Below, one piece after another: positions 1 to 44,545 of a DNA stretch of 64,000 nt (the stretch's first letter is position 1; each line of letters begins with the position of its first letter). The notes below the pieces were generated by a model. It was not told where the DNA came from. It did no database searches and saw nothing but the letters and a program-made list of their open reading frames with translations. The stretch covers positions 11,317 to 75,316 of IMG/VR virus record IMGVR_UViG_3300029288_000149, one strand, 5' to 3'. Source of the DNA: a virus. Its lineage: Duplodnaviria > Caudoviricetes. A program made the translations under genes and the position numbers.

Positions 1-1090
1 AGTCTTTTGCTGAGTAAGGCAATAAGATTTTCAAAGGCATCTTCGCGTACGTACCTTTACGTTTAGCATCAGCTTCTGGATGTTCACGAGCATATTCATC
101 CATCTCACTCTCATGATCATACCAGCCTAAGTAAGTAGCAGACAATCGTTTCAAACCGTGCTTACCTGGTGCTGGATCAATAAGAGAACTGAGTAACATT
201 GTGTCATCACAAGCTCTGTACATTTTACCAAATTGTGCTCTTGTGTGAAGTAAGTCAAATTTTATGTTCTGTCCCTCTAACTTACCGTCATGTTCGTCCA
301 ATATCTCACATATTATCTTTTCAACTCTTACTAAATCCGAGCCTTTCCAGTATGATTCCGGATGTCTAGTCGGAAGACTGAACATCTTATTACCAGCTGC
401 GAATGACACAGCTAACATAAAATTGCTCTTGGAATATGGATCTAATGAGGATGTCTCAACATCGTACGCTATCTTCTCATATTTTGATAAATACTCTTGC
501 ATGTCCTGTACTTGTGCTATCGTATTCGGTAATACAATCTGTAATGACGAACCAACTTCTTCCTCAAACACACCTTCAAGAGCATCACAAGCCTTCAGTA
601 AACTTTCCAACCATTCGTCAGTAGCTGTCTTATTACGTAATATGTAAGCTGGGTGGTAAACAGGTACATAAATCCTGCCATTCTTCTCTATGATGTTACC
701 ACTCCAATCCTTTATGCCATTCTCACCTAAGATACCTTGCAAGGCACTATTCCCGGTAACAATAACCATTTCCGGATTGTAAGTTTCTATGTCTTCGAGT
801 GCAAATTGACTGCAATAATTTATGGCAGTCTGAGTTATTTTGTTATTAGGAGGTCTACACCGAACGACGTTGGTAAATCTCATGTCGTCTAGGTTGAACC
901 CAACTTCTGACAAGACATTCCTGAATAATTCACCTGCAGTACCTACGAAAGGTTCGTTTCTTTTGTCTTCAGTTTCTCCTGGTGCTTCACCGATTACCAA
1001 CACACGTGGAGAAACTGAACCTGAAGAGTCCATAAAGGGATTCTTGCAAGTTTCGTGTAATTTACACTTAAGACAGATTTCACCTTTCAT
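1..1090 (-). CDS. DNA polymerase (family A, SPO1-like), N-terminal part: family-4 uracil-DNA glycosylase domain + 3'-5' exonuclease domain; runs off window
   Basis: Not in the ORF track because it has no stop in the window. Manual translation from ATG at 1090 (overlaps the upstream TAA): MKGEICLKCKLHETC..VLVIGEAPGETED..PFVGTAG..TNVVRCRPP..YHPAY (UDG family 4), then YDVETSSL..GQNIKFDL..DTMLL..YSAKD (Exo I/II/III). Confidence 0.9.
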   Translation of the reverse strand, partial: MKGEICLKCKLHETCKNPFMDSSGSVSPRVLVIGEAPGETEDKRNEPFVGTAGELFRNVLSEVGFNLDDMRFTNVVRCRPPNNKITQTAINYCSQFALEDIETYNPEMVIVTGNSALQGILGENGIKDWSGNIIEKNGRIYVPVYHPAYILRNKTATDEWLESLLKACDALEGVFEEEVGSSLQIVLPNTIAQVQDMQEYLSKYEKIAYDVETSSLDPYSKSNFMLAVSFAAGNKMFSLPTRHPESYWKGSDLVRVEKIICEILDEHDGKLEGQNIKFDLLHTRAQFGKMYRACDDTMLLSSLIDPAPGKHGLKRLSATYLGWYDHESEMDEYAREHPEADAKRKGTYAKMPLKILLPYSAKD

Positions 1091-1512
1091 TAGAGTTTAT
1101 CTGTAATATCAGGTTGTGGATCATGTCCCTCATTGACATCAGGAAGACTTTGGATAATCAATTCTTCAGGGACAAGATTCGAATCTCCCAAGTCAGGATT
1201 ATTCCTCAACTTCAACAGAGCAAGAAGACCATATCCAACAATATCCTGTAAAGTGTCTACGATGTTCTCGCTTGCTACCATAGCCTGTGCACCACCAGAC
1301 AAGGTTTTGACACGCAGAATTTTATCATTTATTCTGATCAGAGGTGTGAAGATGCCGTATCTCTGCCAAGCATCACCATAATCAGCATTCTTTGCTAACA
1401 ACACCTTGACAATTTCTCGAGTGTCAATGTGTGATCTCTTTGTGAATGCTTCAACAGCCTCTTCTGAGACCTGATCCAGACTAACCTTTGTTACGTTCAC
1501 CATATTGTCCAT
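1090..1512 (-). CDS. Nucleotide-modification-associated domain 1 (DUF1599/Nmad1-like) protein
   Basis: KNADYGDAW..LIRINDKILR..DTLQDIVGYGLL motif; start reassigned to MDNM behind GGAGG RBS. Confidence 0.7.
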   Translation of the reverse strand: MDNMVNVTKVSLDQVSEEAVEAFTKRSHIDTREIVKVLLAKNADYGDAWQRYGIFTPLIRINDKILRVKTLSGGAQAMVASENIVDTLQDIVGYGLLALLKLRNNPDLGDSNLVPEELIIQSLPDVNEGHDPQPDITDKL

Positions 1513-1550
1513 CTTTACCTCCGATGATAATTTCTGCTTAATACAACTTG

Positions 1551-1796
1551 TCAACGGTCATGTTCAATTGCCGGAAATAACATTATTGTATGTCTTTGAT
1601 GACCAGTAGACTTTGCTTTACACACGATTCCCGGTATATCAATGACACCATCTTCTATTCTGTATTCAATTCGTGTTGGCATATAGCCATACTTTCTTTT
1701 GAAGTACTCAACACCTTCCTCAGCAAATTTTTGGAAAGTTTGCTTTGGATGTGGAGATCCCCACATCAAACCTATATTATCACTTGCTGGGTACAT
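1551..1796 (-). CDS. hypothetical protein
   Basis: 81-aa ORF overlapping both neighbours in operon style. Confidence 0.6.
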   Translation of the reverse strand: MYPASDNIGLMWGSPHPKQTFQKFAEEGVEYFKRKYGYMPTRIEYRIEDGVIDIPGIVCKAKSTGHQRHTIMLFPAIEHDR

Positions 1797-2670
1797 ATCT
1801 CATTCTAGGCTTGCCTTCCCCCAACCTTGTGCGCTCATACTTGTCAAATTCACACAAGGTGTGTTCGATGTCACGCAATTCTAATTGTGGAAATTGGTCA
1901 GGCAAATAGTCCTTACTCATAAGTAATAAATTCTTCATACAATCTAGGCTATAATCGTCAGACACAATCCTGTCTAATAATCTCCCATAGAAGATGCGCA
2001 TAATTCCACGTTTAGCACCATTACCTGGATTTGCCCAAGTATAAATATCACTAGCGTTCTTAAGATAACGTGTGTGCCTAAGGTCTGTAACAATCTCATA
2101 AGCAAGGAATCTACCAATAGCAGGTATTTTACCAATTACCAATCGTTCAAATGCTGTTTGCAAATTATCATAACTTTTAGGTTCTAATTCCCTGCGATTG
2201 TCCCACAAGAACCTCCAAGTCTTGTCAGTATACATTTCTATCTTGTCTGAACCACCAACTCCTGATAACATGTGAGCACCAGTAAAGATAGGTTTACCAA
2301 GCATTTTTCTGTGATTCAAAGTCAGCTTAACACGTTCGGAGACGTATTCTGTTATAAATCGCAAACCAGTATAACTTTGTTCTACCTCGTAAATATCTTC
2401 CCAAGATTCCAAACGATTTATTGATCTGTAAGCAGCTATATTGAAGAATAATTCAGGATGATTTGCAAACGGTTCAATAATATGTTCTCTACACCAAACA
2501 GTCCCTGTGTCTAATTCCCTGAAGACATTACAGAATTTGTATCTCCGTAGAATAGGATCATCTGTCCAAGGGAATGGTAATCCAGCTACCTTACTGAGAT
2601 AAATAGTATGACGCTCCAACATAAATTTGAAGAATCTTGACACAGAGGATGGTGTATCTTGACTAAGCAT
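1780..2670 (-). CDS. aGPT-Pplase1 / 5-hmdU DNA kinase helical-domain family protein (HhH-glycosylase-like)
   Basis: FFKFMLERH..PWTDDPILRRYKFCNVFRELD signature; HhH-like IPAIGRFLAYEIVTDL; IEHTLCEFDKY. No Walker A seen. Confidence 0.8.
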   Translation of the reverse strand: MLSQDTPSSVSRFFKFMLERHTIYLSKVAGLPFPWTDDPILRRYKFCNVFRELDTGTVWCREHIIEPFANHPELFFNIAAYRSINRLESWEDIYEVEQSYTGLRFITEYVSERVKLTLNHRKMLGKPIFTGAHMLSGVGGSDKIEMYTDKTWRFLWDNRRELEPKSYDNLQTAFERLVIGKIPAIGRFLAYEIVTDLRHTRYLKNASDIYTWANPGNGAKRGIMRIFYGRLLDRIVSDDYSLDCMKNLLLMSKDYLPDQFPQLELRDIEHTLCEFDKYERTRLGEGKPRMRYVPSK

Positions 2671-3850
2671 ACAACACCTCACTCATCAAAGACTGCCACG
2701 TAGGTAATAAACTACGTTGGTATTTAACAACTTCATTGAATTTATCTTGAGATGCTGTGTATGTGTCCAATAATCTGCAAACATCTTCAACTTTGTGAAC
2801 AATAAACTCACTACCAACCATACGGTCTGCACCAGCAATCATATTATCACACATCGCAAGGCAGCCTGATTGAATAACCTGTGGAACTCTTGTTACCTCA
2901 GTACCATTAATAGCTAAATCCTTGCTTACACATATCACACAGGCTAGTCCTTTCTCGTAATGAGACTGAACATTGCCGTGATGCTTGTCTGCTCCAGGTA
3001 TCGTTATATTGTCTTTATATCTCCACCTCAGAGTATCCCATTCTTTACCAACTACAAGCGAGGTATACTCGTCTGTGTCATAGAATCTCTGAACACGTTC
3101 ACCTCTGAATGCTGTACCAACCTTACCGACGAATACAAGATCGAATAGAGCATCCTTTATACTTCTAGGTTCAAACCTCTTGTCATAACGAGGAGAATAT
3201 CCAAGACGTGTATTGACAGTACGATAGAATTTCAAATCAGATAATTTGTAATTCGATGAATTCTTTATGACATGTTGTGAACTCGCTGCGAATGTCCAAA
3301 GAATCCACTTATGATCCCTGTAATCGAATCCTTTGAAAATGTTATGCATATTGTTAGGACTGACAGACTTAAGATAGTCTTCACCATACTTGTTAGGATC
3401 AGACTGCATTCTACCTAATGGTAATTCTAGGCTATTTGGACCGTGCTGTATGATTACAATCGGAATACCCTTAGACTTCTCGAGAATATTCGCAAATTGT
3501 TTGAAGTGTGGAGTAAGTCCTCCCCAAAATTCAGTAACAATTCCACTATTGTACGAGTACATAGCATTTGCAGCAGCTGGTTCTACGAATATGTAATCAA
3601 ACTTATCCATGTCAGGATTGAGATCATACTTCAACATAGTCATCCATTTGTTGTCAAAATTTCCAAGACTTTCACCACGCAAAGCGTGTCTGTGTTTGTC
3701 AGGAACGTAAGAAGTTATAGTAACCTGATGACCTTCTTCTATCAATCCTTCCAACACACCAAGTCTGATATCTGTACCTAACATATTTACGGATGCAATC
3801 TCGTAATCCAATTCGGTAGGTTGATTGGAACGCATATACGCAATTTTCAC
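2663..3850 (-). CDS. GT-B glycosyltransferase resembling T4 beta-glucosyltransferase (DNA glycosyltransferase candidate)
   Basis: C-terminal FDLVFVGK..FRGERV..YEKGLACVI..TRVPQVIQSGCLAMCD pattern parallels BGT; lies in the base-modification cluster. Confidence 0.6.
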   Translation of the reverse strand: MKIAYMRSNQPTELDYEIASVNMLGTDIRLGVLEGLIEEGHQVTITSYVPDKHRHALRGESLGNFDNKWMTMLKYDLNPDMDKFDYIFVEPAAANAMYSYNSGIVTEFWGGLTPHFKQFANILEKSKGIPIVIIQHGPNSLELPLGRMQSDPNKYGEDYLKSVSPNNMHNIFKGFDYRDHKWILWTFAASSQHVIKNSSNYKLSDLKFYRTVNTRLGYSPRYDKRFEPRSIKDALFDLVFVGKVGTAFRGERVQRFYDTDEYTSLVVGKEWDTLRWRYKDNITIPGADKHHGNVQSHYEKGLACVICVSKDLAINGTEVTRVPQVIQSGCLAMCDNMIAGADRMVGSEFIVHKVEDVCRLLDTYTASQDKFNEVVKYQRSLLPTWQSLMSEVLYA

Positions 3851-3851: not shown

Positions 3852-4604
3852 TTAACCTCGTATCTTTGCTCTAGCAGTCCGTTTCATGTACTCAGGCTTG
3901 TACTTCTCAATATTCTCAGCCTTACGCACAGCCTCAGCCATATTCATAACATCCAACCGTTCGTTGGTCTCACTACGTCTCCAGACTACACCAAGTTTAT
4001 CAGCATATGCTTTCTTCTCAGTGTATGTCATCTTACCCCACTTCTCAACCCACTCTGTAAATTCTGGATTAAGGACTTCGATCCAATATTGTTTACCAGT
4101 AATGCCTTTCTTCAAATATCGAAATCCTGTCTTTGAGACAATAATATCATTCGGTATGATAGACACCTGATAAGAATTCAGTCCATCACACTTAATCATA
4201 ATGGCTTCACCAGAACGCATTGCCTTCATGATGTCTTCTACAGGATTTGTCCCAGTCTTCTTACCTTTGAACTTCTTCTCAACCTTCACAGGTTCAGTCT
4301 CTGTAAAAGACTCTTCTTCTGAAGGTTCTTCTTCAGAAGAAATTACTTTTACCTTTGAAGGTTTGCTGAACCTGACTGTATTGTGTGGTATTCTACGTGT
4401 AGTAGGTTCTTCAAGTTTAGCTACTTCTTCAATAGGCGTATCATCATACTCTTCAACACCCTCGGCTTCAAGAGCTTCTTCCAACTGTGCCTGAGCCTGT
4501 TCACCACCAAATACAGCAGACGGTGGTGGTAATAATTCAGCTGGTAACGTACCTCTTGTGATCAATCTTCTACGTACGTTAGGATTCTTTATTATTGGTG
4601 TCAT
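3852..4604 (-). CDS. hypothetical protein (acidic low-complexity N-half)
   Basis: 250-aa ORF with RBS, operon-coupled. Confidence 0.7.
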   Translation of the reverse strand: MTPIIKNPNVRRRLITRGTLPAELLPPPSAVFGGEQAQAQLEEALEAEGVEEYDDTPIEEVAKLEEPTTRRIPHNTVRFSKPSKVKVISSEEEPSEEESFTETEPVKVEKKFKGKKTGTNPVEDIMKAMRSGEAIMIKCDGLNSYQVSIIPNDIIVSKTGFRYLKKGITGKQYWIEVLNPEFTEWVEKWGKMTYTEKKAYADKLGVVWRRSETNERLDVMNMAEAVRKAENIEKYKPEYMKRTARAKIRG

Positions 4605-5675: not shown

Positions 5676-5703
5676 CTGATCCTCCAGTTTATAATACAAC
5701 TTG

Positions 5704-7296
5704 TCATGCTACTAAAATCAATTGGTCTAGGCTGCGTGTGTAAGCCACATACTTTATATTATTCTCCTGTGCCTTCTCCCAATCATGCTTCGCATTAGGA
5801 TGAGGCATCAAACCAGGTTCTAGAATGAAAACCTTCTCAGCTTCAAGTCCCTTTGCCTTATGTACAGAAGAGAATACTACACCTGCATTGTTGTCAGAGA
5901 AGATGGTTTCAATCTTGTCCTCCAATTCAGATATTGTACCAGTCCCATCCATAAGAGCATGAATGGTATCAACTTTGTCCTGTAAACTTTGAGCAGCTAT
6001 ATTCTTATCTCTGTCCACCAGTTTACCAACTTCTTTACGGCAATATTCTACTAATTTTATGTTGAGTTCGGAGATGGAATCTGCCTTAAGTTTACGTATT
6101 ATGGTCATAAGATTGTTACCAATATCACGACCACGTATAATAGCCTTGATACCTCTCTTTATGAGTTCAAATGCTGGAGGTACAAGAGGTGCATTACATC
6201 TACACAAGACCATGTTACCTGCTACTACTTCCTTCAAGAAATCACTTTTAGCAATATGTCTGATTTCACCGTCTTTAGCAGTGTCTGCGCATTCGAGTGG
6301 TATGTCAGGAAACATTTCGTTGATCAACCTAACTTGTGATCTTGGACAACGATATGTTATTGAAAGTGGTAAAGTTTCAGCCTCCAAATTCTCAATTAGA
6401 TTGGGAATTGCATTGACATCAGCTCCACGAAAACCATAGATAGATTGGTAACGGTCACCTACGGCTACTATCCTGCCATTAGGTTTCACACTCATAAGAG
6501 CTAAAGCAATCTGGTTCTTGTTAGTGTCTTGTGCCTCATCGATAAAAATAAAATCATACTTACGTGTCGGTAAGTTGTGGAATACAGGAAGCCAGCACAT
6601 ATCATCGAAATCAATCACATTGGTCTTCAAGGCTGCTAACTTTATCACCTCAGCAACAGCTAAGAAGATTAGTTCACGGTCACCATTCAGTTCTATGTTA
6701 TAATGTGTTGACAAGTCATCAAGCTCCTCTGGTGAAGTTCCGGTTAAATTACCCTTTACCAAAGAGACAAGATGTTTGATGCTAGCAAACAGATGCTTAT
6801 GTGTGTACCTATCAAGTATGTCATCCAACAAATTATCCACCTTGTACTCGTCAAGTTTTACGTCTCCATAAGCATTGTGTACTGCTGAGTTACCCAGACC
6901 GTGATAAGTCATAACCCTTACGTTTGACGGTACTCTGGTTTTCAATTCCTCAGCTATGTGTCTATTGAAGGCAACATAAACGATATCCAGATTACGTGGG
7001 ACATATTTCAGCATCTGCACACCAGTAGTTGTTTTACCACTTCCTGCTAGTGCCTCTACGACAAGAGACTTACCGTTACCTTTTACCCAATCAAATATAG
7101 CTTGCTGGTAAAGTGACGGTTTGAATTCCTTCTCAACTTCTACTTTCCTGTCGGAAATTATTTGTGAGGCTTGTCCCATTGGCATAGTTGCCTTACAATC
7201 AGGAAATCTTGAACAACCTAAGAATTTACCTCTGTCTGACTTTCTTACTCTGATAACCATTAGGCTTCCACATTGCGGACAATTAATGGCTGTCAT
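5704..7296 (-). CDS. UvrD/Rep-like SF1 helicase with N-terminal topoisomerase-type C4 zinc finger
   Basis: CPQCGSLMVIR..GKFLGCSRFPDC; ALAGSGKTT; FIDEAQD; VGDRYQSIYGFRGA; SSVHKAKGLE; YVAYTRS. Confidence 0.9.
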   Translation of the reverse strand: MTAINCPQCGSLMVIRVRKSDRGKFLGCSRFPDCKATMPMGQASQIISDRKVEVEKEFKPSLYQQAIFDWVKGNGKSLVVEALAGSGKTTTGVQMLKYVPRNLDIVYVAFNRHIAEELKTRVPSNVRVMTYHGLGNSAVHNAYGDVKLDEYKVDNLLDDILDRYTHKHLFASIKHLVSLVKGNLTGTSPEELDDLSTHYNIELNGDRELIFLAVAEVIKLAALKTNVIDFDDMCWLPVFHNLPTRKYDFIFIDEAQDTNKNQIALALMSVKPNGRIVAVGDRYQSIYGFRGADVNAIPNLIENLEAETLPLSITYRCPRSQVRLINEMFPDIPLECADTAKDGEIRHIAKSDFLKEVVAGNMVLCRCNAPLVPPAFELIKRGIKAIIRGRDIGNNLMTIIRKLKADSISELNIKLVEYCRKEVGKLVDRDKNIAAQSLQDKVDTIHALMDGTGTISELEDKIETIFSDNNAGVVFSSVHKAKGLEAEKVFILEPGLMPHPNAKHDWEKAQENNIKYVAYTRSLDQLILVA

Positions 7297-8561: not shown

Positions 8562-9831
8562 CTGTCTCTTTGTCCTTATTCTTCGACAAACCAGTTGTTA
8601 TGATAGCCTGAGACTTACCATAATATTTCGCATCAAACATCATCTTCTTATTACCATCACGAACCTTTGCCATAAACAGTCTGCAAGCATTCAACTGTTC
8701 TTCATCACGAGTCTGACACAAAGCAACAATTACGTCAGCAATAGCAGCCTTGCCGATATCTTCTGCAATATCTTGGATGGTAATAACTTCCTTTGACAAT
8801 GAACTTCTACCAGATTGTGAAGCACCCCAAACTGGTACATCGTACTTGGTGCCAAGGTCTCTGAATTCCTTGTAAACCTCTGATAACTCAAATCTTCTCT
8901 CAGTATATTTCCTCGTAGAAGCTACCAAATCAGGATAATCGTCTATTATTAGATCAAATTTGAATCCCTCGTCAATAAGTCTCTCAAGTTGAGAATCAAT
9001 TCTGTCAATATTAGAACTGCTCATACCGATAACTTTTATTTTACCAGTGAGGATGTGTGAGGCTGCCTTCTTCAGAGACAGTTCATAATCTTCAAGGTCA
9101 CCATCACGTGATGGAAATTTGAACAGTGTGCGAGCAGCATACCTCTTCGCAGTAATTTCCTGACTCATCTCGTGTGTGAAATGCACAACATTACAATTTG
9201 AACCTATGGAAGCTGCTCCAAAGCCAATATTGATAAGACTCATAGACTTACCTGCATTCATAGGAGCGAGCATTATTCCTAATTCTCCTGCTCCTAAACC
9301 ACCTTCAAGTAAAGAGTCTATATGGTACCAACCAGTTCTAACTTTATGTGTCCATAATTCATACAACCACTTATCAATATCCTTTATCACTTCCAAACCA
9401 GTATTCTGTATACTTTCACCAACACGTAAGGCTTCTTTAATCCTGACTATTGTGTTTTGTAAATTACCTTTAGCAATATCATCAACAGAATCCAAAATTG
9501 CTATCTTAGCAGCCTGTTCTCTTGCCCACTGTAGTGCTTTATCACCTGCTAACCTCTTCTCTTGTGATGGAATTGCATACAAATACTCGAGAAACTCGAC
9601 GTAACCGTCACCTAATAAAGTCGTCAAGTCGTTCATACTTGTAGGACACATCTTGTAATCTGTCCAATATTTTACAATAACTTTTGCAACAGCTTCCTCA
9701 TCGTCCTTCTCAAAGAATTCAGGTCTTATTACAGTTGTACCATATTGACTCATCCAATATCTGTCAAGCATGAGACTTAATATCTTTAATCTGAATTCTC
9801 TATCGAATGGATATATGTCTACTTCCGGCAT
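8554..9831 (-). CDS. replicative DnaB-like (SF4) helicase
   Basis: ELGIMLAPMNAGKS Walker A; IIDDYPDL; VWGASQ; IGKAAIADV; AKVRDG; start reassigned to MPEVD. Confidence 0.9.
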   Translation of the reverse strand: MPEVDIYPFDREFRLKILSLMLDRYWMSQYGTTVIRPEFFEKDDEEAVAKVIVKYWTDYKMCPTSMNDLTTLLGDGYVEFLEYLYAIPSQEKRLAGDKALQWAREQAAKIAILDSVDDIAKGNLQNTIVRIKEALRVGESIQNTGLEVIKDIDKWLYELWTHKVRTGWYHIDSLLEGGLGAGELGIMLAPMNAGKSMSLINIGFGAASIGSNCNVVHFTHEMSQEITAKRYAARTLFKFPSRDGDLEDYELSLKKAASHILTGKIKVIGMSSSNIDRIDSQLERLIDEGFKFDLIIDDYPDLVASTRKYTERRFELSEVYKEFRDLGTKYDVPVWGASQSGRSSLSKEVITIQDIAEDIGKAAIADVIVALCQTRDEEQLNACRLFMAKVRDGNKKMMFDAKYYGKSQAIITTGLSKNKDKETDV

Positions 9832-10415
9832 TGCAATCTCCCTATAAGCGCATTGTAATCTTTGACAGGTTTGATTCCATATTCTCCACACAATATTTCA
9901 GTAACTTCAGCACTTGGTCGTTCTTCTTTATCACAATTCAACCAGTGTTTACTCAAGAGTGGTTTCAAATCCTTTACAATTTCAGTCATCCTGCATACTT
10001 CCTTCAAATTACTGTCTACATATTTCCTTGCGACTAGTAATTCGGACTGTAATATTTCTGTCTTAATATCATCATCTACGTCAGGCACACTTACATAATC
10101 ACTCTTATTAATAGTCTGAAACTTCTTGAGTGCCCAATCTCCACAAAATACATTTATTGGTATCCGATAAAATTTCTTCTCCTTCAACCACTTCTCTAAT
10201 AGCTTTACAACAGTTTGTGCATAATCACGATAACCTATGTTCAATTCTCGTAAATCGTCCATAAACGTCTCAAACACAGCATATTCACCAGGACGTATAA
10301 AGCACTTCCTGCTAAGAATCTGTTTGTGTGCAGATTCATAATGAGAGGCAAGAGCTGGTTTATTTGACAACGATTGTCTCGAATTTCTCAGAGGCATAAG
10401 TATCTGCCCTTTCAT
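9819..10415 (-). CDS. hypothetical replication-region protein
   Basis: 198-aa ORF between two helicases; true start uncertain. Confidence 0.6.
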   Translation of the reverse strand: MKGQILMPLRNSRQSLSNKPALASHYESAHKQILSRKCFIRPGEYAVFETFMDDLRELNIGYRDYAQTVVKLLEKWLKEKKFYRIPINVFCGDWALKKFQTINKSDYVSVPDVDDDIKTEILQSELLVARKYVDSNLKEVCRMTEIVKDLKPLLSKHWLNCDKEERPSAEVTEILCGEYGIKPVKDYNALIGRLQCRK

Positions 10416-21845: not shown

Positions 21846-22305
21846 CTGTCAGTGTCGTATTCATGTCATTCAAAAGACTCTGCAGATTACCATTTTCAAA
21901 TCTAAGTCTCGGAGCCATGCCTGGAATTGAGTATTCCAGATCAGTTATTGAGCCATCAAGATTTATTTCTCCATGCCAATTTCCATCTTCTCTCTTATCT
22001 ACTATCAAATTAAGTCTGGATGGGAAATCATAATTTGTAGCTCTGCTTCTGGCACGTGATGTCACAGGCTTCAACATTACTTGCTTATCATAAAATTGTG
22101 CACTCTTTGAATATCCAGCTCTGTAAAGTTTATTATTTTCCAAATCAGAAATAACAGACTTTGAAGAACCTTTATCCATAACAACAGGTGTTCCTGGTGA
22201 TGAACCTTTAGGAGCTGACCCACCTACTTCACCAGGTCTACCCTTATGACCATGGAAGCCTGAACCAGCACCACCTTTGAGTCTGATAGTTAGTTTAACC
22301 ATCAC
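21802..22305 (-). CDS. KGGxGSG-tagged protein, unknown cargo
   Basis: N-terminal LKGGAGSGFHGHKGRPGEVGGSAP. Confidence 0.8.
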   Translation of the reverse strand: MMVKLTIRLKGGAGSGFHGHKGRPGEVGGSAPKGSSPGTPVVMDKGSSKSVISDLENNKLYRAGYSKSAQFYDKQVMLKPVTSRARSRATNYDFPSRLNLIVDKREDGNWHGEINLDGSITDLEYSIPGMAPRLRFENGNLQSLLNDMNTTLTDVAHKMGGTVSRRL

Positions 22306-23362: not shown

Positions 23363-24448
23363 TTAGTCCAGAATTGGGTTCCCTAATTGATAACTACCTT
23401 GACTCAACATTGATGATAAATCCTCACGTTCCTGCTTGTTGAACCTCATATTATTAATCTTTTGATAATCTCTGATAAGTAATCGAACAGATGGTGTTAA
23501 ACCTCGTTTTCTCATCTTATCAGCAATATCATACATTTGATTTGTTATGTCATCAAGAACTTGTTCATAAGCATCTTGTGCTTGTGACTCTTGCCCTGTA
23601 GTATCATACTCACCAGATGCAATTCTTCTGTTATGTAAAATTTTCATATTTTCTGTAACATTACTGGTATCATCCCTAAACATATTAGCATATGCCTCGT
23701 GAGCACTACCTCTACTCAATTCTCCATCCTCATTGGGGATACGTGATCTAATTCCTGGTAAATCTCCAGGTTTATCATCTGGAGAATGAACTTCTCTACG
23801 ATTGAGTTTAGTAGTCTTCCTACCACTCGCTTGACCACCAGCAGGAAGGGATCCACCATGATGACCGGGAATGCCTCTGTGTCCATGATGTCCTGAACCG
23901 GGACCACCTTTGAGCCGCATAACATAAGATTTACCAATAAATTCCTTCTGACCTGTCCAGTAATCTTCGAGTGACTTTGTGTCTGGAGGAGTTACGAGTA
24001 TGCCGTACTTCTCAGGACCGAGCATAGCCTTGTATCCAAAACCCTTCAGATAGTTAATCATTCCTTGCACTTGCTTAGGTGTCTCTGCACCATAAGCAAC
24101 CATAGGGAATGATCCAAGATCATGTGTGCCATCCTCAGATAAATGAGAAGTATCACTACCATAAACAGTATAACCAACTTTAGTTCTACTGTTTATGAGC
24201 TCAGCAGCACCTCTTGCAATGTCCTTAACAATTCTTCTGTCTGTAAAAGATTTGATGCCAAGAGCAATTGCCTTCTTACCAATGGCTATAAGTTCCTTAG
24301 AATAAGGATCCAAACCTGATTCATCAGGAGCTTGGGAACCAGATGCCGAGCTACCTTCAGGAGAACTCCCACCAACAAAACCAGGACGACCTTTATGACC
24401 ATGAAATCCTGATCCAGGACCACCTTTGAGTCGAATTGTATAAGCCAT
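23363..24448 (-). CDS. double-tagged protein (two KGGxGSG tags, two unknown cargo domains)
   Basis: LKGGPGSGFHGHKGRPGFVGGS at N-terminus and LKGGPGSGHHGHRGIPGHHGGSLP internally. Confidence 0.8.
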   Translation of the reverse strand: MAYTIRLKGGPGSGFHGHKGRPGFVGGSSPEGSSASGSQAPDESGLDPYSKELIAIGKKAIALGIKSFTDRRIVKDIARGAAELINSRTKVGYTVYGSDTSHLSEDGTHDLGSFPMVAYGAETPKQVQGMINYLKGFGYKAMLGPEKYGILVTPPDTKSLEDYWTGQKEFIGKSYVMRLKGGPGSGHHGHRGIPGHHGGSLPAGGQASGRKTTKLNRREVHSPDDKPGDLPGIRSRIPNEDGELSRGSAHEAYANMFRDDTSNVTENMKILHNRRIASGEYDTTGQESQAQDAYEQVLDDITNQMYDIADKMRKRGLTPSVRLLIRDYQKINNMRFNKQEREDLSSMLSQGSYQLGNPILD

Positions 24449-24449: not shown

Positions 24450-24776
24450 TTAGACCACCTTCTCAGCTAAAAATCCTGACACACCTACGCTCCCAGGAAT
24501 AAGCCAGATTAACGACACGTAATTACCACTAACTAAATATACGTAAGTTAGTGAGAGTAAAATCGCTATCCATGTGCCTGTACACCAATGACATACCAAT
24601 AATTTAGCAAAGAATTTCGTCGGAGGATCATACACTTCCTCATCACCAATAAAGGAGTAATGTACTCCAGCCAAAATTCTGACCTTCTTGAAGATATCTT
24701 TTGGACCATCCGTATAACATATCAGATAAGTCAATCCAAAGGTTGCCAATCCTATAACAAGTATAGACTCAAGCAC
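24450..24776 (-). CDS. DUF1360-like membrane protein
   Basis: Hydrophobic helices and LLVCHWCTGTW motif. Confidence 0.65.
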   Translation of the reverse strand: MLESILVIGLATFGLTYLICYTDGPKDIFKKVRILAGVHYSFIGDEEVYDPPTKFFAKLLVCHWCTGTWIAILLSLTYVYLVSGNYVSLIWLIPGSVGVSGFLAEKVV

Positions 24777-25998
24777 CGTCTTTACCTGCCTTCTTACCTA
24801 ACCAAAACAACACTCCTGATCTACCTTTGCCTCTCTTCTCACGCTCCAGAAGTACTGCAGCTGTCTCTTCTGTCACATCCAAGTCACGAATATCACCGAC
24901 GGTCAATGCTGCGACATCAGGAAGTGACTCCTCAACAACAGGTTCTACGACAGGTTTCCGAACAACGTCAACAACTGGAGTTCTTGTTACAACCTCTTCC
25001 AGCTTCTGCTCTTCAACCTTCTCGACAACAGCTTCCTTCTCGACCTTCACAAAGAATGATCTTCTGCCTGGAGTTTCAGGACTGGTAGCATCGTTAGGGT
25101 CAACATAATAGTAATTACCATATTCGACCTTGTATGCAAAGTGTGTGAACACACCCTTGTAATAATGTGCAGCTTGACCTTTACCACCAGTGTAAAAAGC
25201 AAGTATACGACCATCCTGTGTACCAGGAAGATTATTCACATTAGCAGCAGCAGCAACTTGAGCTTTACTTGCAATAGCCTCTGCTGACGTACGTCTCTTA
25301 CCACCACATGCTGGGCAACTCACTTGGAACCTCCTTAAACTATTCAATATGTCACGAGAAATTTGCACTGATATTGCTGTGTCTTTTATGTTACGAGTCC
25401 TCTGTTTATCATGTTGTCTGTAACGTAATAAAGGTTCGTGTAAATTTTTACCACAATATGTTAGCATCAACCTAGAATTGTACTCAGCATCCTCATACAA
25501 ATCCAGATTCTCATTCCAACCACCAATTGCTCTCCATTGATCAACAGCATGTAAGACAGTCACAGAGGCAATACCCAATTTCTCCTGTGCTAATTTACAT
25601 GAAAAATCAAGAAGACGATAATGTGCTACTTCCTGTGTGCCGAACTTTGCCAAATCAGGATAAACAGGTGTGCCATCCCAAGTACTCAACAACTTATCTA
25701 CAGCACCATCAACAAGTTTGTCATCACAATCAAGTGGTAATATGAGACTTGTAGTAACCTGTTCGACTGCACGATTTCTTGTGTGAGACACACCCTTGTG
25801 CACAGAACTTTTGAAGACTTTCAAATTACTGACATTCTCAAAGTGCAATTTCAATAACTCTGTGTCCAATTGTGAATAATCATCATAAACAATAACCTGA
25901 CAATCCTGTCTCAAAGCAGAATCGATACATTCATACAACCAAGTAGTTGATTGTTCGTCTATAACATAAGCAGGAATTATAATCGTAACATCTTTCAT
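24769..25998 (-). CDS. GT2 glycosyltransferase fused to CxxC segment and C-terminal helical virion-type domain
   Basis: VTIIIPAY; GVSHTRN; LPLDCDD; EDAEY; CPACGG; C-terminal LTVGDIRDL..EREKRGKGRSGVL. Confidence 0.8.
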   Translation of the reverse strand: MKDVTIIIPAYVIDEQSTTWLYECIDSALRQDCQVIVYDDYSQLDTELLKLHFENVSNLKVFKSSVHKGVSHTRNRAVEQVTTSLILPLDCDDKLVDGAVDKLLSTWDGTPVYPDLAKFGTQEVAHYRLLDFSCKLAQEKLGIASVTVLHAVDQWRAIGGWNENLDLYEDAEYNSRLMLTYCGKNLHEPLLRYRQHDKQRTRNIKDTAISVQISRDILNSLRRFQVSCPACGGKRRTSAEAIASKAQVAAAANVNNLPGTQDGRILAFYTGGKGQAAHYYKGVFTHFAYKVEYGNYYYVDPNDATSPETPGRRSFFVKVEKEAVVEKVEEQKLEEVVTRTPVVDVVRKPVVEPVVEESLPDVAALTVGDIRDLDVTEETAAVLLEREKRGKGRSGVLFWLGKKAGKDGA

Positions 25999-27695
25999 TA
26001 TAATAATATACCCCTGACTCTGTTAGAAGTTGATAACAATTTCTTGAACAATTCGTCTACCCTAACGTCGAAGCTGTGTTTAGTCATGACAAATTCCTGT
26101 CCTTCTTTGGCAATCTTCAACCGCTTATCTTCATTCTTCATCCAGTATTTTATAAGGTCTGGAATCTCTTCTATGGAGTCCCAGGTAACAAGATGCACAC
26201 CATTCTTCAGACCTGTGTACTTCTCCATACCCTTGAAGCTCTGCTGCAGCATGAATGTACCAGCATACAAACATTGAAGAATTCTGTTCGACACATAACC
26301 CACAGAATCTCTCCACTGGCAATCTCCGAGAGCTATTTTACAATTCATATACAACCTCTGACCTTCATCGAAGTTGTACAAATTCATGCCTTCAACCCTT
26401 ATTGACTTCCAATCTCCATAAATTCCAACATTAACACCACGTAAATTCCTTAACATATTCCCAAATACTTTACGCTTCTCCGAGTACTCATTCCCTAAGA
26501 ATAATACATCATGTTTTCTAGTAGTAACAGTCGGCAAAGCGTCTGACTCTTCATAACCAATCTGCCAATACATCCAATTCTTGTATTTCTTGTGTACGTC
26601 AGCACAGACAAATGAGGCAACATCGAATTCGTGCATAAGACGTATATAACTCTCAGAATACAATATGCTGGGATTATAATCACCATTCCAATTTACAAAT
26701 ACAGCGTCCTTGTGTTCTTGTCTCAATTCCTTCATCAAGTTTATTGGGAATACATCACTATTGTGTAATTGTAATAAGAATACATCAGGCTTGAACATAT
26801 TCGCAACATCAAATATCAGAAGAGGATTATTCATGTAATCCACTTCTGACACAGCAGACCGTCTTGCAAGAGCGTCCCTTAACCCTCGCTTTGTAGTCAA
26901 TTGCATCCTTATTCTGTGCTCATAAATTGGAGCATACAAGATTCGTAATTTACGTTTCAATGGATTCGGTACAAGAGGTTTTGACACAATATTTGGACCG
27001 TGTCTTCCAACTAACCATTTCTTCATGTAAGCAATAGAATCTGGATGTTGTCCTTTGTTCAGTTCTACAGAACCTGTATTCTTGATCCGTAATTCATCCA
27101 TTGGCATCTTGTCGTGAATACAAGCACAAGGTACAGGTTCAATCTTGTATCCTAATTCATAAATATTACAAGACAGTTCGTTGTCACCACCATATGTCTT
27201 TGTGTAATTACCCCACCATCCAACCTTATCACCAAGCCACTTCGGTACTATGCAAACCTGTCCGTAAGGTACACTAACGTGCACACCATCTCTGGTGGCA
27301 GCCAGCAATTCGACATGAAACTCCCTATTACCTCTGTCCTGATAAAAACAGCCTATGCCGACATCCTTGTGATCTTCCATGTAAGCATATGCTGCTTGAA
27401 TACTTTCAAATACAAATTCAATGTCATCATTACCGATAACTACATATCTACCTTTAGCTTGTGCAAACCCTGCATTGAACGCTTTGACAGCACCTAGCAA
27501 GGCACCCTGTTGTATGAAAACTATATCAGGTTGTGATTTACACCAAACTGGAGTTCCATCTTTTGATCCACCATCAACAACGATTATCTCATAAGGTATA
27601 CCTCTTCCTATGGATAATCTTGTGGATTCAACCATCTTTTGAAGATAATTTAAGCGATTGTACGTTCCTGTTACAACGCTTATTTCTATTCTCAT
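25998..27695 (-). CDS. bifunctional glycosyltransferase (GT2 + CgeB/YkvP-like GT-B)
   Basis: ISVVTGTYNR; IIVVDGGSKDGT; GNDD; C-half DVLFLGN..SNRILQCLYAGTFML. Confidence 0.85.
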   Translation of the reverse strand: MRIEISVVTGTYNRLNYLQKMVESTRLSIGRGIPYEIIVVDGGSKDGTPVWCKSQPDIVFIQQGALLGAVKAFNAGFAQAKGRYVVIGNDDIEFVFESIQAAYAYMEDHKDVGIGCFYQDRGNREFHVELLAATRDGVHVSVPYGQVCIVPKWLGDKVGWWGNYTKTYGGDNELSCNIYELGYKIEPVPCACIHDKMPMDELRIKNTGSVELNKGQHPDSIAYMKKWLVGRHGPNIVSKPLVPNPLKRKLRILYAPIYEHRIRMQLTTKRGLRDALARRSAVSEVDYMNNPLLIFDVANMFKPDVFLLQLHNSDVFPINLMKELRQEHKDAVFVNWNGDYNPSILYSESYIRLMHEFDVASFVCADVHKKYKNWMYWQIGYEESDALPTVTTRKHDVLFLGNEYSEKRKVFGNMLRNLRGVNVGIYGDWKSIRVEGMNLYNFDEGQRLYMNCKIALGDCQWRDSVGYVSNRILQCLYAGTFMLQQSFKGMEKYTGLKNGVHLVTWDSIEEIPDLIKYWMKNEDKRLKIAKEGQEFVMTKHSFDVRVDELFKKLLSTSNRVRGILL

Positions 27696-30781: not shown

Positions 30782-31261
30782 TCATGAATTGTAATACACA
30801 TCAAAATTCTTATCAACCTTAGTAAGATTCTTTGGCACAAGTCTTCCCATATCATCACGCAACATCGCATGAGTAGGTTCAAAGAATCTTACCTTCTCAG
30901 CAACATTCTGACCTTTCCTTATCATAAAATTTCCTCCTGGAATAACACACAGTATGTCGCCAGATTTAGTAGTAACAACATCATAAGTATTGTCAAGTAC
31001 TTGTGCAGCACCGTACCACACACCAGATCTCTGAGTACCTGTCTTAATCCAAACTTTTATTCCCTTTGGAAGTTTATAATTACCATTACTAACATTGTAC
31101 TCATATGTTACTTCAGATCTCTCCAATTGTCTTCCTGCAAACTTAGGTGCTGCAGATGCTTGACCATCTCTTGGAAGGGATCCACCGTGATGACCAGGAA
31201 TACCTCTGTGTCCATGATGCCCTGAACCAGCACCACCTTTAAGTCTGATTGTGAATTTCAT
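30782..31261 (-). CDS. KGGxGSG-tagged protein, unknown beta-rich cargo
   Basis: MKFTIRLKGGAGSGHHGHRGIPGHHGGSLP. Confidence 0.8.
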   Translation of the reverse strand: MKFTIRLKGGAGSGHHGHRGIPGHHGGSLPRDGQASAAPKFAGRQLERSEVTYEYNVSNGNYKLPKGIKVWIKTGTQRSGVWYGAAQVLDNTYDVVTTKSGDILCVIPGGNFMIRKGQNVAEKVRFFEPTHAMLRDDMGRLVPKNLTKVDKNFDVYYNS

Positions 31262-31342
31262 ACCGATTCTCCTTAATTTCTGAACATCCTTCTCAGAGAT
31301 GGGAAGTTGCTTCTCAACACAATGTTCTTTGTTTATAAATAA

Positions 31343-32113
31343 TTAATTAGATTTTTCATCGACAATTTTTATCTGTTTAGGGTCGAAAACCACCCACTCT
31401 GTTTGTCTCCTTCCAGAAGAGTCCTTTACATAGTTAACAATTCCATCATAACCTTGTCTTTTCAAATTTTCTATCTTTGTCATGGCTGCTCTCTGGCGTG
31501 CTTTTGAATCTTCTGAGCTTCCATATCTTAAGTCAAGAGGATTTTTGACAGACAGAATCGCACTATATATCTTTGCTCCCACTCCAGTCTTTGTGTATGT
31601 CTTTTCTAGAAGTGGGTCATACGTTCTTGTTGATACAAAGTAACTGGCAAAATCTTTTGATGGTGTAAAATATATTCCACCCTTAGCATCATTTGATTCT
31701 GTATTACTGCCACTTTTATCCAAGTCAAATTCTGTAAATGGTGAAGTTTGTTTAATAATATCACCACCATTCTTAATTTGATAATCTCTGTATGCTCTCC
31801 CCCATCCGTCTAAATCTTTATTAATATCATCTATACTTGGAGGATTTATTCTTCCAGTATCTTTGTATATTCTTACTATAGCATTGTGCAATTCTTTTGA
31901 GTAATTAGTGTTATAAACAAGAGAATTTGGTGTTCCATGATAAACCGTTATAGGATTCCCTTTTGTATCTACTACCTTACTACCAGAGAACCATTTATCA
32001 ACAGCACTAGCTGAACTTCCTTCAGGCAAACTCCCACCCTGATGACCAGGACGACCTTTATGACCATAATGTCCAGATCCTAGACCACCTTTGAGTCTTA
32101 GTGTGAATTTCAT
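31343..32113 (-). CDS. KGGxGSG-tagged ADP-ribosyltransferase (ART-PolyVal-like)
   Basis: Tag, then WFSGSKVVD..VYHGT..GIYFT..KNP..GYDG..EWVVFDPKQIK. Confidence 0.75.
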   Translation of the reverse strand: MKFTLRLKGGLGSGHYGHKGRPGHQGGSLPEGSSASAVDKWFSGSKVVDTKGNPITVYHGTPNSLVYNTNYSKELHNAIVRIYKDTGRINPPSIDDINKDLDGWGRAYRDYQIKNGGDIIKQTSPFTEFDLDKSGSNTESNDAKGGIYFTPSKDFASYFVSTRTYDPLLEKTYTKTGVGAKIYSAILSVKNPLDLRYGSSEDSKARQRAAMTKIENLKRQGYDGIVNYVKDSSGRRQTEWVVFDPKQIKIVDEKSN

Positions 32114-32682
32114 GCCGATTCTCCTTTACTTATCTTACGATATGCACGTTTTACAGATGCTTCAATAATACTTCTGAACGCTCCAGCCTCTTTACTCTTT
32201 GCCCACTTTATAATTGTCTCTGTAAAATTACGAGGATAAATACCAGGATGGTGCACAACTTCAACATTCAGAAATTTAGGATCTCCAGTAGGTGGAAATC
32301 CTTGAATACTAGGATTTGGTAGAGTAATTGGAGTGTGTGGAACTTTGAATGACAAATAATTACTCTTCTTTGGTCGAATCTCATAATCCTTACCACCACC
32401 TCTAGAACCTGTGCCTTTATCTACCCAACCATAAATTTTACCAATCTTTGTTGTCTTTGCAACTTTGGCTATAACAGACCAACGTCTCTTAGTAACTTTA
32501 ATACTTACTGTGAAGATAGGTTTCTCACCCCAATTGTTTACAGTGTCTTCAAATTTACCCTTCACAACTTTGGAAAATTCTGTAAGACCACTCTCAACTT
32601 CCTTCTGCACAAGTTCATGCTGACGTCTTTTGGTACCTGGTCTTACTTTACGCTTGAGAACTAACATTGGTGGCATTGTCAA
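32110..32682 (-). CDS. HK97 gp10-like head-tail/neck protein
   Basis: YGWVDKGT..YEIRPK..LSF..VHHPGIYPRNF pattern. Confidence 0.55.
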   Translation of the reverse strand: MTMPPMLVLKRKVRPGTKRRQHELVQKEVESGLTEFSKVVKGKFEDTVNNWGEKPIFTVSIKVTKRRWSVIAKVAKTTKIGKIYGWVDKGTGSRGGGKDYEIRPKKSNYLSFKVPHTPITLPNPSIQGFPPTGDPKFLNVEVVHHPGIYPRNFTETIIKWAKSKEAGAFRSIIEASVKRAYRKISKGESA

Positions 32683-38884: not shown

Positions 38885-39553
38885 TTATCTTTTGAAATAC
38901 ATAACTCGTATCCACAATTTGTCCTGAGTACAATCCACCTCATCAAATTTGAATCCTTGTTTCTTCAGATTCTTCTGAATTAAGTTGGCATTGTCCCTCC
39001 ATTCTTTGTGTCCAAAGTGGAATTCAATAATTATTTGTCTTACACAATCAGGCAATTTCAGACTGTCAAATATGTCATACTCAGCTCCTTCAACATCACA
39101 TTTGATAATTGTTGGTTGTATATCTTCAAGTACTTCTTCAATTCCTATCGATTCTGCTTTAAATGGTCCCTCTCTGCCTCTCTTTATGTGGGATGAAGTA
39201 GCACCACTGTTCTTTGCTCCGAGATAATATTCTACTTGCTGACCTGCAGTTTTCTGAGACACACAAGCGTAATTGTATACTTGTATGTCTTTGTAAGGTT
39301 TTGTGTTCAATTCCAATAATTCATAATTATCCTTTGCCATCTCAATGCTGATAACCTGATCAACTTTCAAGGACGTAGGTATGGCAAACGTTCCGATATG
39401 TCCACCAATGTCAAGAACAACATCCTGCATTGTAAGTTCCAAAGCACCATATTGTTTACCATATAAGTTTTCCTTCATGGTAAGTAAGTCACCATAATTT
39501 CCTTCACGATAATGGAATGGTTTACCATTGAATTCTGTTGTGACAATGTTCAT
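38885..39553 (-). CDS. FkbM-family SAM methyltransferase
   Basis: VLDIGGHIGTF; IIKCDVEGAEY; IIEFH. Confidence 0.85.
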   Translation of the reverse strand: MNIVTTEFNGKPFHYREGNYGDLLTMKENLYGKQYGALELTMQDVVLDIGGHIGTFAIPTSLKVDQVISIEMAKDNYELLELNTKPYKDIQVYNYACVSQKTAGQQVEYYLGAKNSGATSSHIKRGREGPFKAESIGIEEVLEDIQPTIIKCDVEGAEYDIFDSLKLPDCVRQIIIEFHFGHKEWRDNANLIQKNLKKQGFKFDEVDCTQDKLWIRVMYFKR

Positions 39554-40039: not shown

Positions 40040-40066
40040 CGGTTATTCTCCCACTAATACAACTTG

Positions 40067-44544: not shown

Positions 44545-44545
44545 G

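Follow-up and report, generated by a model that had tools for sequence, protein, structure and literature searches.

A BGT-like glycosyltransferase next to a clade-1 aGPT-Pplase in an uncultured tailed phage: a candidate kinase-free route to glycosylated 5-hydroxymethyluracil in DNA

Introduction

What would a phage do to its DNA with a glycosyltransferase gene that overlaps a gene of the thymidine-hypermodification type? The window analysed here is a stretch of 64,000 nucleotides (bases 11317-75316) of the 75,316-bp contig IMGVR_UViG_3300029288_000149 (G000), which belongs to an uncultured tailed phage. At its low-coordinate end it encodes a glycosyltransferase (GT) related to the β-glucosyltransferase (BGT) of phage T4. 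Its neighbours are a protein of family PF18723, a DUF1599 protein and a DNA polymerase. A thymidylate synthase (TS)-fold enzyme is encoded farther along (Table 1).

Characterised phage thymidine hypermodifications use a DNA kinase with an amino-acid transferase, or a long linker (SP-15 type). In the literature searched, a sugar carried directly on 5-hydroxymethyluracil (5hmU) in DNA is found only in kinetoplastid base J. An earlier reading of the sequence (the original prediction) proposed that the cluster makes a sugar-substituted 5hmU. Its Nmad1-like, aGPT-Pplase1-family and BGT-like GT-B proteins beside an SPO1-type polymerase are all present on the minus strand, as judged by Pfam, profile searches and AlphaFold2 (AF2) models compared with Foldseek. 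On balance, we consider it probable that the phage makes the deoxynucleoside form (5hmdU) before replication and then O-glycosylates it directly on the DNA.

The glycosyltransferase is a distant relative of T4 BGT

The GT had no match as a single sequence in Pfam, PHROG or NCBIfam. Likewise, a tblastn search of phage records gave no match. An exhaustive HMMER search of 1.8 billion representative proteins recovered 57 relatives, all metagenomic, and these searches place the family in metagenomes only. A profile built from 43 of its members matches T4 BGT (1BGT) at E 1.6e-14, over profile positions 80-370. The AF2 model, built on the family alignment, has a pLDDT of 95.4 and a pTM of 0.93. T4 BGT supplies six of its seven best Foldseek matches in the PDB (1QKJ/1NZD/1J39), with E values down to 1.6e-12 and TM of 0.70-0.73. 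Envelope and storage glycosyltransferases, and T4 AGT, rank below it. The BGT-like character given to this enzyme in the original prediction is upheld by both profile and fold.

The arginines that serve the UDP phosphates are kept. BGT R195 corresponds to GT R249 (42 of 43 members) and BGT R269 to GT R321 (all 43). BGT E272 corresponds to GT Q324, a position with Q in 24 and E in 8 of the 43, and BGT Arg191 has no clear counterpart. The GT is a distant BGT relative, with the same fold and donor-binding residues and an altered catalytic site. We predict that it is a DNA (5hmU) glycosyltransferase, an acceptor assigned from the gene neighbourhood. The BGT fold is compatible with this acceptor, as T4 BGT itself is able to glucosylate 5hmU in DNA (PMC5741180).

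Other glycosyltransferases are encoded in the structural module (24450-27695). These are a GT2 protein (409 aa) and a fusion of GT2 with Glyco_trans_1_2 (565 aa), accompanied by a DUF1360 membrane protein. They form a separate glycosylation cassette, possibly for virion proteins. The GT-B-like C-terminal domain in this cassette is probably the second, weak match of the GT hidden Markov model (HMM) in the genome.

The PF18723 protein is a clade-1 aGPT-Pplase

The PF18723 match is strong (E 1.6e-50, 172.5 bits against a cut-off of 25) and covers profile positions 4-278 of 281. Over 95% of its length, the protein shares 39-41% identity with the clade-1 proteins of M6/Yua-type Pseudomonas phages (AN14/M6). 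Neither it nor its neighbours show a Walker A motif, as the original prediction had already noted for this protein. That prediction nevertheless placed it in a kinase family, and this part has to be corrected. The protein is a clade-1 aGPT-Pplase (M6 gp55-like), a paralogue of the helix-hairpin-helix, glycosylase-like amino-acid:DNA transferases (AADT), and not a kinase. The Pfam name of PF18723 ('5-hmdU DNA kinase, helical domain') stems from the kinase-Pplase fusion SP10 gp186 (PMC5889632, Table 3). The actual 5-hmdU DNA kinase (5-HMUDK) is a separate P-loop protein, M6 gp54 (PMC8989533). The aGPT-Pplases as a whole have the helix-hairpin-helix, glycosylase-like architecture, and their clade 2 (PF18724) is the AADT (PMC8989533). 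The clade-1 protein M6 gp55 was dispensable for the reaction in lysates (PMC8989533).

The AF2 model of the PF18723 protein is all-helical (pLDDT 92). Foldseek on this model gave no significant match by itself. After VIA re-alignment, the best match was the AADT PaMx11 gp46/PUGT (Z 10.7, rmsd 4.0, 218 residues). Near-ties at Z 9-10.5 were Mag1, the 3-methyladenine and 8-oxoguanine (Ogg) glycosylases and the queuine-salvage protein DUF2419. In this range of VIA Z, helical folds can match by arrangement alone, although the list of matches is coherent. A PF18723 profile search of PDB sequences returned nothing usable.

Across 40 aligned PF18723 homologues, six residues (E273, H274, C277, E278, D280 and K281) do not vary. 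When PF18723 is aligned with the M6-type AADT by hhalign, only residues 268-281 pair, with AADT 238-251. The probability of 0.2% is not significant, and we used this pairing to place the shared motif and not as evidence of homology. It sets C277 on AADT Cys247, and E273 on the Glu four residues before Cys247. Cys247 is the catalytic nucleophile of PUGT (PMC11472151), and the conserved Cys with its neighbouring Glu is essential in M6 gp51 and ViI gp247 (PMC8989533). The PF18723 protein thus keeps what looks like the Glu-x3-Cys motif of the AADT. By analogy, the protein probably also acts as an enzyme, with C6 of a flipped 5-substituted uracil as its point of attack.

The TS-fold enzyme resembles dUMP hydroxymethylases

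The TS-fold enzyme keeps the equivalents of Glu58, Tyr94, Cys146, Arg166, Ser167, Asp169, Asn177, His207 and Tyr209. Its C159 and N191 align with Cys146 and Asn177. The dUMP-type Asn reported in the original prediction is therefore present, in a clear PF00303 match, whereas the CMP hydroxymethylase MilA has Asp in this column. The Cys, the Asn and other core residues are invariant in 75 of 75 TS-like homologues linked to PF18723. Nevertheless, MilA is its best match in the PDB (1.3e-20), with no TS better than 5e-11, and the enzyme scores 71-91 bits against NCBIfam TS equivalog cut-offs of 174-327. It aligns with the AN14/M6-type enzyme over residues 8-339 of 365, into a C-terminal extension that is foreign to TS. 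In TS, Trp82 (L. casei numbering) guards the methylene intermediate from water, and its mutation leads to hydroxymethyl-dUMP. The alignment places no Trp of the TS-fold enzyme in the TS W80/W83 columns. We read the enzyme as uracil-type and closest to hydroxymethylases, with 5hmdUMP as its predicted product.

Could it be a divergent thymidylate synthase, in a phage with normal T in its DNA, where the PF18723 protein and the GT serve some unrelated or regulatory purpose? Every residue for C5 methylene transfer is present, and the sequence by itself cannot separate a hydroxymethylase from a synthase. The contig also comes from ordinary metagenome sequencing, which implies a DNA that is not refractory to polymerases; T4-type monoglucosylated DNA, however, can be sequenced too. 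We judge this explanation very unlikely. It has to contend with the low TS scores, the closer relation to MilA and the missing Trp80/Trp83. The C-terminal extension is that of the M6-type enzyme, whose phages carry 5hmdU-derived bases (PMC5889632), and a TS-like gene accompanies PF18723 in 70 of the best 80 of 585 loci.

Two other genes may bear on the predicted modification. A dCTP deaminase (DCD) follows the polymerase in the part of the contig outside the window. An FkbM methyltransferase gene lies upstream of the TS-like gene. An FkbM gene is also directly beside the GT homologue in the P0008 contig, and SAM methyltransferases flank the GT in the P0012 contig and in L014. It is a possible tailoring enzyme, for example for sugar O-methylation, although the link is weak. 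The window has a second FkbM-family methyltransferase at 42142-42813, and a sub-threshold MptE-like match (PF01973) at 55673-56335.

No kinase or amino-acid transferase was found

The 5-HMUDK was searched for with AN14 gp13 by tblastn, which gave nothing in the genome at E<=1. A 5-HMUDK HMM matches 13 other loci and none in this genome. For the AADT, PF18724 had no match on the 75,316-bp contig, though control genomes gave no match either; tblastn found none, and the AADT HMM matches six other loci and none here. No pyridoxal-phosphate (PLP) or radical-SAM enzyme was found in this genome, and the island contains no sugar-nucleotide gene. Since no gene for a kinase or an AADT was found, we propose neither a phosphorylation nor an amino-acid transfer step.

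The only P-loop kinase of small-molecule type is a Zeta-toxin-like protein (43639-44589). We rejected it as a hidden 5-HMUDK, since it shows no resemblance to the M6-type kinase. It is related to a cyanophage 'head morphogenesis' protein and to polynucleotide kinases, and it carries the N-terminal tag shared by several proteins of this phage (see below).

These searches also bear on whether the GT might glucosylate 5-hydroxymethylcytosine (5hmC), as in the T-even phages. T4 BGT, its closest characterised relative, does act on 5hmC. We found no dCMP-type (Asp) hydroxymethylase on the contig, and the sole TS-fold enzyme has Asn. No cytosine-5 methyltransferase appeared among the ORFs (open reading frames) scanned. 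The Tet/JBP dioxygenase model PF12851 matched nothing in the genome, but it matched no control genome either. The dCTP deaminase would drain the dC pool toward dU, and the PF18723 family is known only from thymidine-modifying phages (PMC5889632). A 5hmC acceptor is barely credible on these grounds. The original prediction had seen no AADT and no dCMP hydroxymethylase in the window, and the searches of the whole contig bear this out. Its sugar-substituted 5hmU holds in part. The gene set points to 5hmU plus a sugar and not to 5hmC, while the phospho-sugar variant lacks an enzyme, no kinase having been detected.

The GT and PF18723 cluster recurs in other phage backbones

We read the context of every GT homologue with a readable contig, and nine independent contexts had usable flanks (gene orders in Table 1). 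In seven of them (this window, L003, L004, L011-13, the P0012 contig, L014 and L092/93/95) the GT lies within a few genes of PF18723, usually with a TS-like gene and/or a DCD nearby. Among the seven are backbones whose replicase is a PolIII-alpha. Since the arrangement recurs in unrelated phage backbones, the clustering is not due to chance. In the P0008 and L007 contexts, the GT occurs without PF18723 nearby.

Second, we examined PF18723 loci, taking the best 80 of 585 confirmed IMG/VR matches with 10 kb of flank on each side. Among these 80, a TS-like gene is present at 70, 5-HMUDK at 13, AADT at 6 and the GT at 4. From these counts, PF18723 is the constant partner of the hydroxymethylase, and the kinase, the AADT and the GT are optional.

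Two relatives, L020 and L022, share the backbone of PF18723, small ORF, DUF1599 and PolA, with polymerases 45-46% identical to that of the window. In both, 5-HMUDK is immediately upstream of PF18723, which is the slot of the GT in this window. L022 (6793-10894) has the order myo-inositol-1-phosphate synthase, AADT, 151-aa ORF, 5-HMUDK and PF18723. It may make a thymidine hypermodification in which the nucleophile is derived from inositol or is otherwise unusual. In L019 the slot holds a radical-SAM gene, and in L082 a dual-specificity phosphatase is encoded two ORFs upstream of PF18723. Given these different genes in L019, L020, L022 and L082, the slot upstream of PF18723 is a hypervariable tailoring island. 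The positional swap fits a view in which the kinase and the GT behave as alternative enzymes for one hydroxymethyl substrate.

In the relatives, sugar-nucleotide genes stand beside the GT: an epimerase/dehydratase, SIS with GHMP kinase, and NTP-transferase with APH. Two loci carry distant GT homologues in larger sets. L014 (7297-11844) has a SIS isomerase and a GHMP kinase, and L011 (767-5494) combines an NTP-transferase/APH fusion with a GT2 and two HAD-type phosphatases. Such sets suggest that the modification has variants with a heptose or a disaccharide. Radical-SAM/SPASM genes adjoin the GT in L003 (11151-12155) and L092 (11813-12853), and adjoin PF18723 in L019 (3309-4301). A plain radical-SAM gene follows the GT in L007 (1867-3699), and DUF2284 accompanies the GT in L007 and in the P0008 contig.

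These neighbourhoods help to weigh two other explanations. According to the first, the GT acts on a protein, a virion component or a molecule of the host envelope, and lies in the replication operon only incidentally. In its favour, GT-B enzymes show great diversity, the generic Glyco_trans_1_2 model gives weak matches to nine family members, Asp100 of BGT is missing and the phage has other glycosyltransferases in its structural module. Against this, both the sequence profile and the fold point to T4 BGT first, above all envelope glycosyltransferases. The family also recurs across backbones beside PF18723, TS-like genes, DCD and DUF1599, and in L004 beside a DNA N6/N4 methylase. Moreover, a kinase holds the same slot in relatives. 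We regard a target other than DNA as quite unlikely.

The second explanation is a two-step route. The Cys/Glu dyad of PF18723 would attach a small hydroxyl- or amine-bearing nucleophile to 5hmU, and the GT would glycosylate that group. The AADT fold of the protein (Z 10.7 to PUGT) and its invariant E-x3-C, which matches the AADT Cys247 region (PMC11472151), speak for it. So do the 8-nt overlap of the GT and PF18723 genes and their adjacency in several lineages. In addition, SP-15, YerA41 and Carin-5 link sugars to T through a linker and not directly (PMC12686479). Nevertheless, known AADTs require the phosphate leaving group that 5-HMUDK provides (PMC8989533), and the searches turned up no kinase in this genome. 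M6 lysates could do without the clade-1 protein for group transfer (PMC8989533). The GT is absent from most PF18723 loci, and the P0008 and L007 contexts have the GT with no PF18723 nearby. We think the two-step route unlikely.

A proposed pathway to O-glycosyl-5hmU

We return to direct glycosylation of 5hmU, and read the cluster as a thymidine-hypermodification island set within the replication operon. The scheme builds on the gene identities, folds, conserved residues and gene associations established in this analysis, and from them we infer every chemical step. The phage dCTP deaminase would feed deoxyuridine nucleotides. The TS-fold enzyme would then convert dUMP to 5hmdUMP in place of dTMP synthesis, and host or other kinases would lift 5hmdUMP to 5hmdUTP. 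The PolA, which is fused to a uracil-DNA glycosylase (UDG) domain, would insert 5hmdUTP in place of T. After replication, the GT would flip out 5hmU and move a host nucleotide-sugar, probably a UDP-hexose, onto the 5-hydroxymethyl oxygen. The product would be a base-J-like O-glycosyl-5hmU that shields the DNA against host nucleases. The PF18723 protein, as the conserved partner of the hydroxymethylase, would probably engage the flipped 5-substituted uracil through C6 chemistry, and the FkbM methyltransferase encoded beside the TS-like gene may modify the sugar further.

Several points weigh against this pathway. The phage is uncultured, and the pathway is predicted from its genes. The catalytic base of BGT, Asp100, is not conserved, and the GT has Q135-H136-G137 at this site. 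H136 is conserved in 30 of 43 members, and only a subset has Asp at position 137 or 138. With Asp100 not kept, the catalytic base and even the acceptor of the GT are uncertain. The His, or the near-invariant E90/D85, may act in place of Asp100. Whole-genome scans with three models, proposed as a check in the original prediction, matched with PF18723 and gave nothing with PF18724 or with the Pfam T4 BGT model PF09198. The latter matches neither the GT nor its family members, and nothing in the genome at E<=1.

Likewise, the TS-like gene is 34 kb from the GT in this genome, and the phage genome yielded no candidate for a 5hmdUMP kinase, a dUTPase or a dTTP-excluding enzyme. At least 60 of the best 80 of 585 PF18723 loci have neither the GT nor the kinase, so PF18723 is not specifically a partner of the GT. 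Finally, the PF18723 protein might create a different acceptor for the GT.

A more complete version of the pathway is tentative, and we would sooner doubt it than rely on it. In this version T is replaced genome-wide by O-glycosylated (possibly O-methyl-hexosyl) 5hmU, through the TS-fold hydroxymethylase and the BGT-like GT. The clade-1 aGPT-Pplase would act, through its Cys, on 5hmU-type bases without prior phosphorylation. If true, it would be the bacterial-virus counterpart of base J by a different route. It would also define a kinase-independent branch of thymidine hypermodification in which the GT and 5-HMUDK are interchangeable first tailoring enzymes within a single hypervariable island.

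A compact, kinase-free route with a hydroxymethylase and a BGT-like enzyme would, if confirmed, be a new natural DNA base chemistry in phages, and the GT a new enzyme for selective 5hmU labelling. It would explain how anti-restriction chemistries are swapped at a single genomic hot-spot within one phage group. The question of what the widespread PF18723 does is narrowed. It is a constant partner of the hydroxymethylase, not of the kinase, with an AADT-like Glu/Cys motif.

Gene order and other features of the contig

The contig is 96% complete by the CheckV estimate, and the minus strand carries nearly all genes of the window. When the first 8 kb were searched as nucleotides in 50,697 phage records, the sole match was 66 bp long. 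By this measure, the phage has no close cultured relative. At the low-coordinate end, the order of transcription is a promoter-like motif (5693-5704), ORFs of 208, 162 and 250 aa, the GT, PF18723, an 81-aa ORF, a second motif, DUF1599 and PolA. Downstream of PolA, in the rest of the contig, come the dCTP deaminase, ORFs of 95 and 203 aa without a family, a gp32-like protein, an Mre11-like phosphoesterase, RecA and a 5'-3' exonuclease.

Table 1. Position of the features discussed and gene order around the GT in relatives
Sequence	Feature or gene order	Position	Strand	Remark
Window	PolA, N-terminal 363 aa with UDG and 3'-5' exonuclease	2..1090	-	Gene runs past the window start
Window	DUF1599/Nmad1	1090..1512 (ORF 1090-1554)	-	PF07659 'Nucleotide modification associated domain 1', E 2.1e-11, above cut-off
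Window	Promoter-like motif TTGACAAGTTGTATT	1540..1554	-	Divides the GT-PF18723 unit from the DUF1599-polymerase unit
Window	81-aa ORF	1551..1796	-	Position conserved; start overlaps PF18723 stop by 17 nt
Window	Clade-1 aGPT-Pplase (PF18723)	1780..2670 (ORF 1780-2682)	-	Likely start ATG 2670
Window	BGT-like GT-B glycosyltransferase, 395 aa	2663..3850	-	GTG start behind GAGG
Window	250-aa protein	3852..4604	-	Immediately upstream of the GT; shared transcription unit
Window	TS-fold enzyme, predicted dUMP hydroxymethylase (M6-type, C-terminal extension), 365 aa	37721..38818	-	PF00303 E 1.8e-25
Window	FkbM methyltransferase	38885..39553	-	PF05050 E 2.2e-11; upstream of the TS-like gene, behind promoter-like motif 40056-40067
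G000, outside the window	dCTP deaminase (DCD)	9316-9876		Follows the polymerase; NCBIfam dCTP_deam equivalog, 153 bits vs cut-off 92.8
L003, L004	Backbone shared with the window, plus insertions			GT 77-79%, polymerase 71% identical; L003 radical-SAM/SPASM between GT and PF18723; L004 DNA N6/N4 methylase
P0008 contig	GT-FkbM methyltransferase-epimerase/dehydratase-DUF2284-DUF1599-UDG/PolA			42% relative
L005	Epimerase-GT
L011-13	NTP-transferase/APH-HAD-GT2-GT-HAD-TS-like-PF18723-DCD			30% relative
P0012 contig	DCD-PF18723-GT-SAM methyltransferase-TS-like-RNR-HD nucleotidase			PolIII-alpha replicase phage
L014	DCD...PF18723-(homing endonuclease)-methyltransferase-GT-SIS isomerase-GHMP kinase			Heptose-type sugar set
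L092/93/95	PF18723-GT-radical SAM/SPASM-TS-like
One 3.5-kb contig	AADT-208 aa-GT

The complete polymerase ORF (genome 9854-12406, 850 aa) encodes a family A enzyme with an N-terminal family-4 UDG domain. Its Pfam matches are UDG PF03167 (E 2.2e-28) and DNA_pol_A_exo1 (E 1e-10). The UDG motifs GEAPG and HPA are intact, which is an SPO1-like architecture, and the SPO1-like UDG type has been described as active (bioRxiv 10.1101/2025.03.26.645540).

Throughout this phage group, DUF1599 immediately precedes the polymerase (L003, L004, L018-L020, L022, L082 and the P0008 contig). Its likely start is preceded by the promoter-like motif and GGAGG. A single-sequence search of the PDB with DUF1599 gave nothing usable. 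The window has 20 copies of the motif ACAAGTTRTATT, where 1.65 would be expected. The motif often has TTG before it, which makes TTGACA, and its orientation follows the genes. Sites include 1540, 5693, 7539, 11879, 27716, 40056, 40803, 42047, 50682, 54972, 57831 and 61263. This suggests that ACAAGTTRTATT is a phage promoter.

The start of PF18723 overlaps the stop of the GT by 8 nt. With the 17-nt overlap that follows (Table 1), the GT, PF18723 and 81-aa genes are tightly linked. Counterparts of the 81-aa ORF (81-107 aa) occur at the equivalent place in L003, L004, L018, L022 and L082, and ORFs of similar size to the 250-aa protein do so in L003 and L004. Family scans gave no match for the 81-aa ORF. 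The 250-aa protein has no family match and its Atlas search was uninformative. None of the neighbouring ORFs (81, 250, 162 and 208 aa) has a Walker A motif or an informative family; the 208-aa ORF has only a weak sigma-70-like match.

Both ends of the contig share a 2.1-kb segment with 88.7% identity (G000 1-2105 and window 61327-63408, which is genome 72643-74724). It includes two copies of a gene for an M23-peptidase and GH25 lysin (L001:1-1430; window 61287-62756). The repeat is probably no true duplication. More likely, the genome is circular or concatemeric, with a length of ~72.6 kb, and the assembly joined two strain variants.

A family of direct DNA repeats of 60-130 nt, 74-86% identical, was also observed (22204-22296, 23821-23914, 24345-24432, 31158-31274 and 31995-32126). 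Further copies are at 33432-33535, 34709-34791, 35484-35550, 44433-44557 and 59475-59544. The majority are found at the 5' ends of minus-strand genes, and many otherwise unrelated proteins thereby share one N-terminal peptide. Among the proteins with this tag are an ART-PolyVal ADP-ribosyltransferase (31343-32113) and the Zeta-toxin-like kinase. The peptide resembles a tag, either a propeptide or a signal for capsid targeting, on cargo proteins that are packaged.

Comparison with known systems

The components are individually known, namely BGT-like transferases, TS-fold hydroxymethylases and clade-1 aGPT-Pplases, and pelagiphages have already been noted to carry a comparable combination of genes (PMC9599517). 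Post-replicative phage T-dioxygenases associated with glycosyltransferases have also been described, without a product (PMC13229309). In the literature searched, we found no report of O-glycosyl-5hmU in any phage. This analysis adds confirmation that the GT is related to BGT, the removal of PF18723 from the kinases, its Glu/Cys motif and the positional swap of kinase and GT.

With T4 BGT (CAZy GT63; 1BGT/1J39), its best structural match, the GT shares the GT-B fold, profile homology and the UDP-phosphate arginines. Both are encoded by phages, among genes for replication and nucleotide metabolism. In contrast, the GT is only ~11% identical to T4 BGT, is 45 aa longer, fails the Pfam BGT model and has Q-H-G in place of Asp100. 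Its genomic partners indicate 5hmU, and not 5hmC, as the acceptor.

The hypermodification systems of M6, ViI, PaMx11 and PhiW-14 (PMC5889632, PMC8989533) share with the window an M6-type TS-like hydroxymethylase and a clade-1 aGPT-Pplase near PolA and a dC-to-dU deaminase. L022, a relative with the same backbone, even carries the kinase and AADT set. Unlike them, this phage has no 5-HMUDK, AADT, PLP or radical-SAM enzyme that we could find. The GT is in the kinase position, which implies glycosylation instead.

The HTVC023P-type pelagiphages (PMC9599517) also have the pair of a TS-like enzyme and a clade-1 Pplase near PolA, with no kinase or AADT. Some of their genomes contain a 5'-deoxynucleotidase and a putative DNA glucosyltransferase. 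They differ in being podoviruses of SAR11, and their GT is annotated as beta-glucosyl-HMC-alpha-glucosyltransferase-like, a comparison made by annotation only.

SP-15, YerA41 and Carin-5 (PMC9023294, PMC12686479, bioRxiv 10.1101/2025.03.26.645540) have sugar-bearing thymidine derivatives, as predicted here, with a UDG-fused PolA and GT genes by the polymerase. Their relative RP13 has aGPT-Pplase1 and no detectable 5-HMUDK. In contrast, they are jumbo myoviruses whose modification combines a pentyl linker, phosphate and several sugars (~1 kDa), and their DNA resists sequencing. The phage of the window has one BGT-like GT, and its DNA was assembled from a metagenome.

Finally, base J of the kinetoplastids (JBP1/2 and JGT) belongs to the product class predicted here, O-glycosylated 5-hydroxymethyluracil in DNA. 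Unlike base J, the 5hmU of this phage would be made before replication, at the nucleotide level, by the TS-fold enzyme. The transferase is a BGT-like GT-B enzyme and not JGT, and the substitution would be genome-wide.

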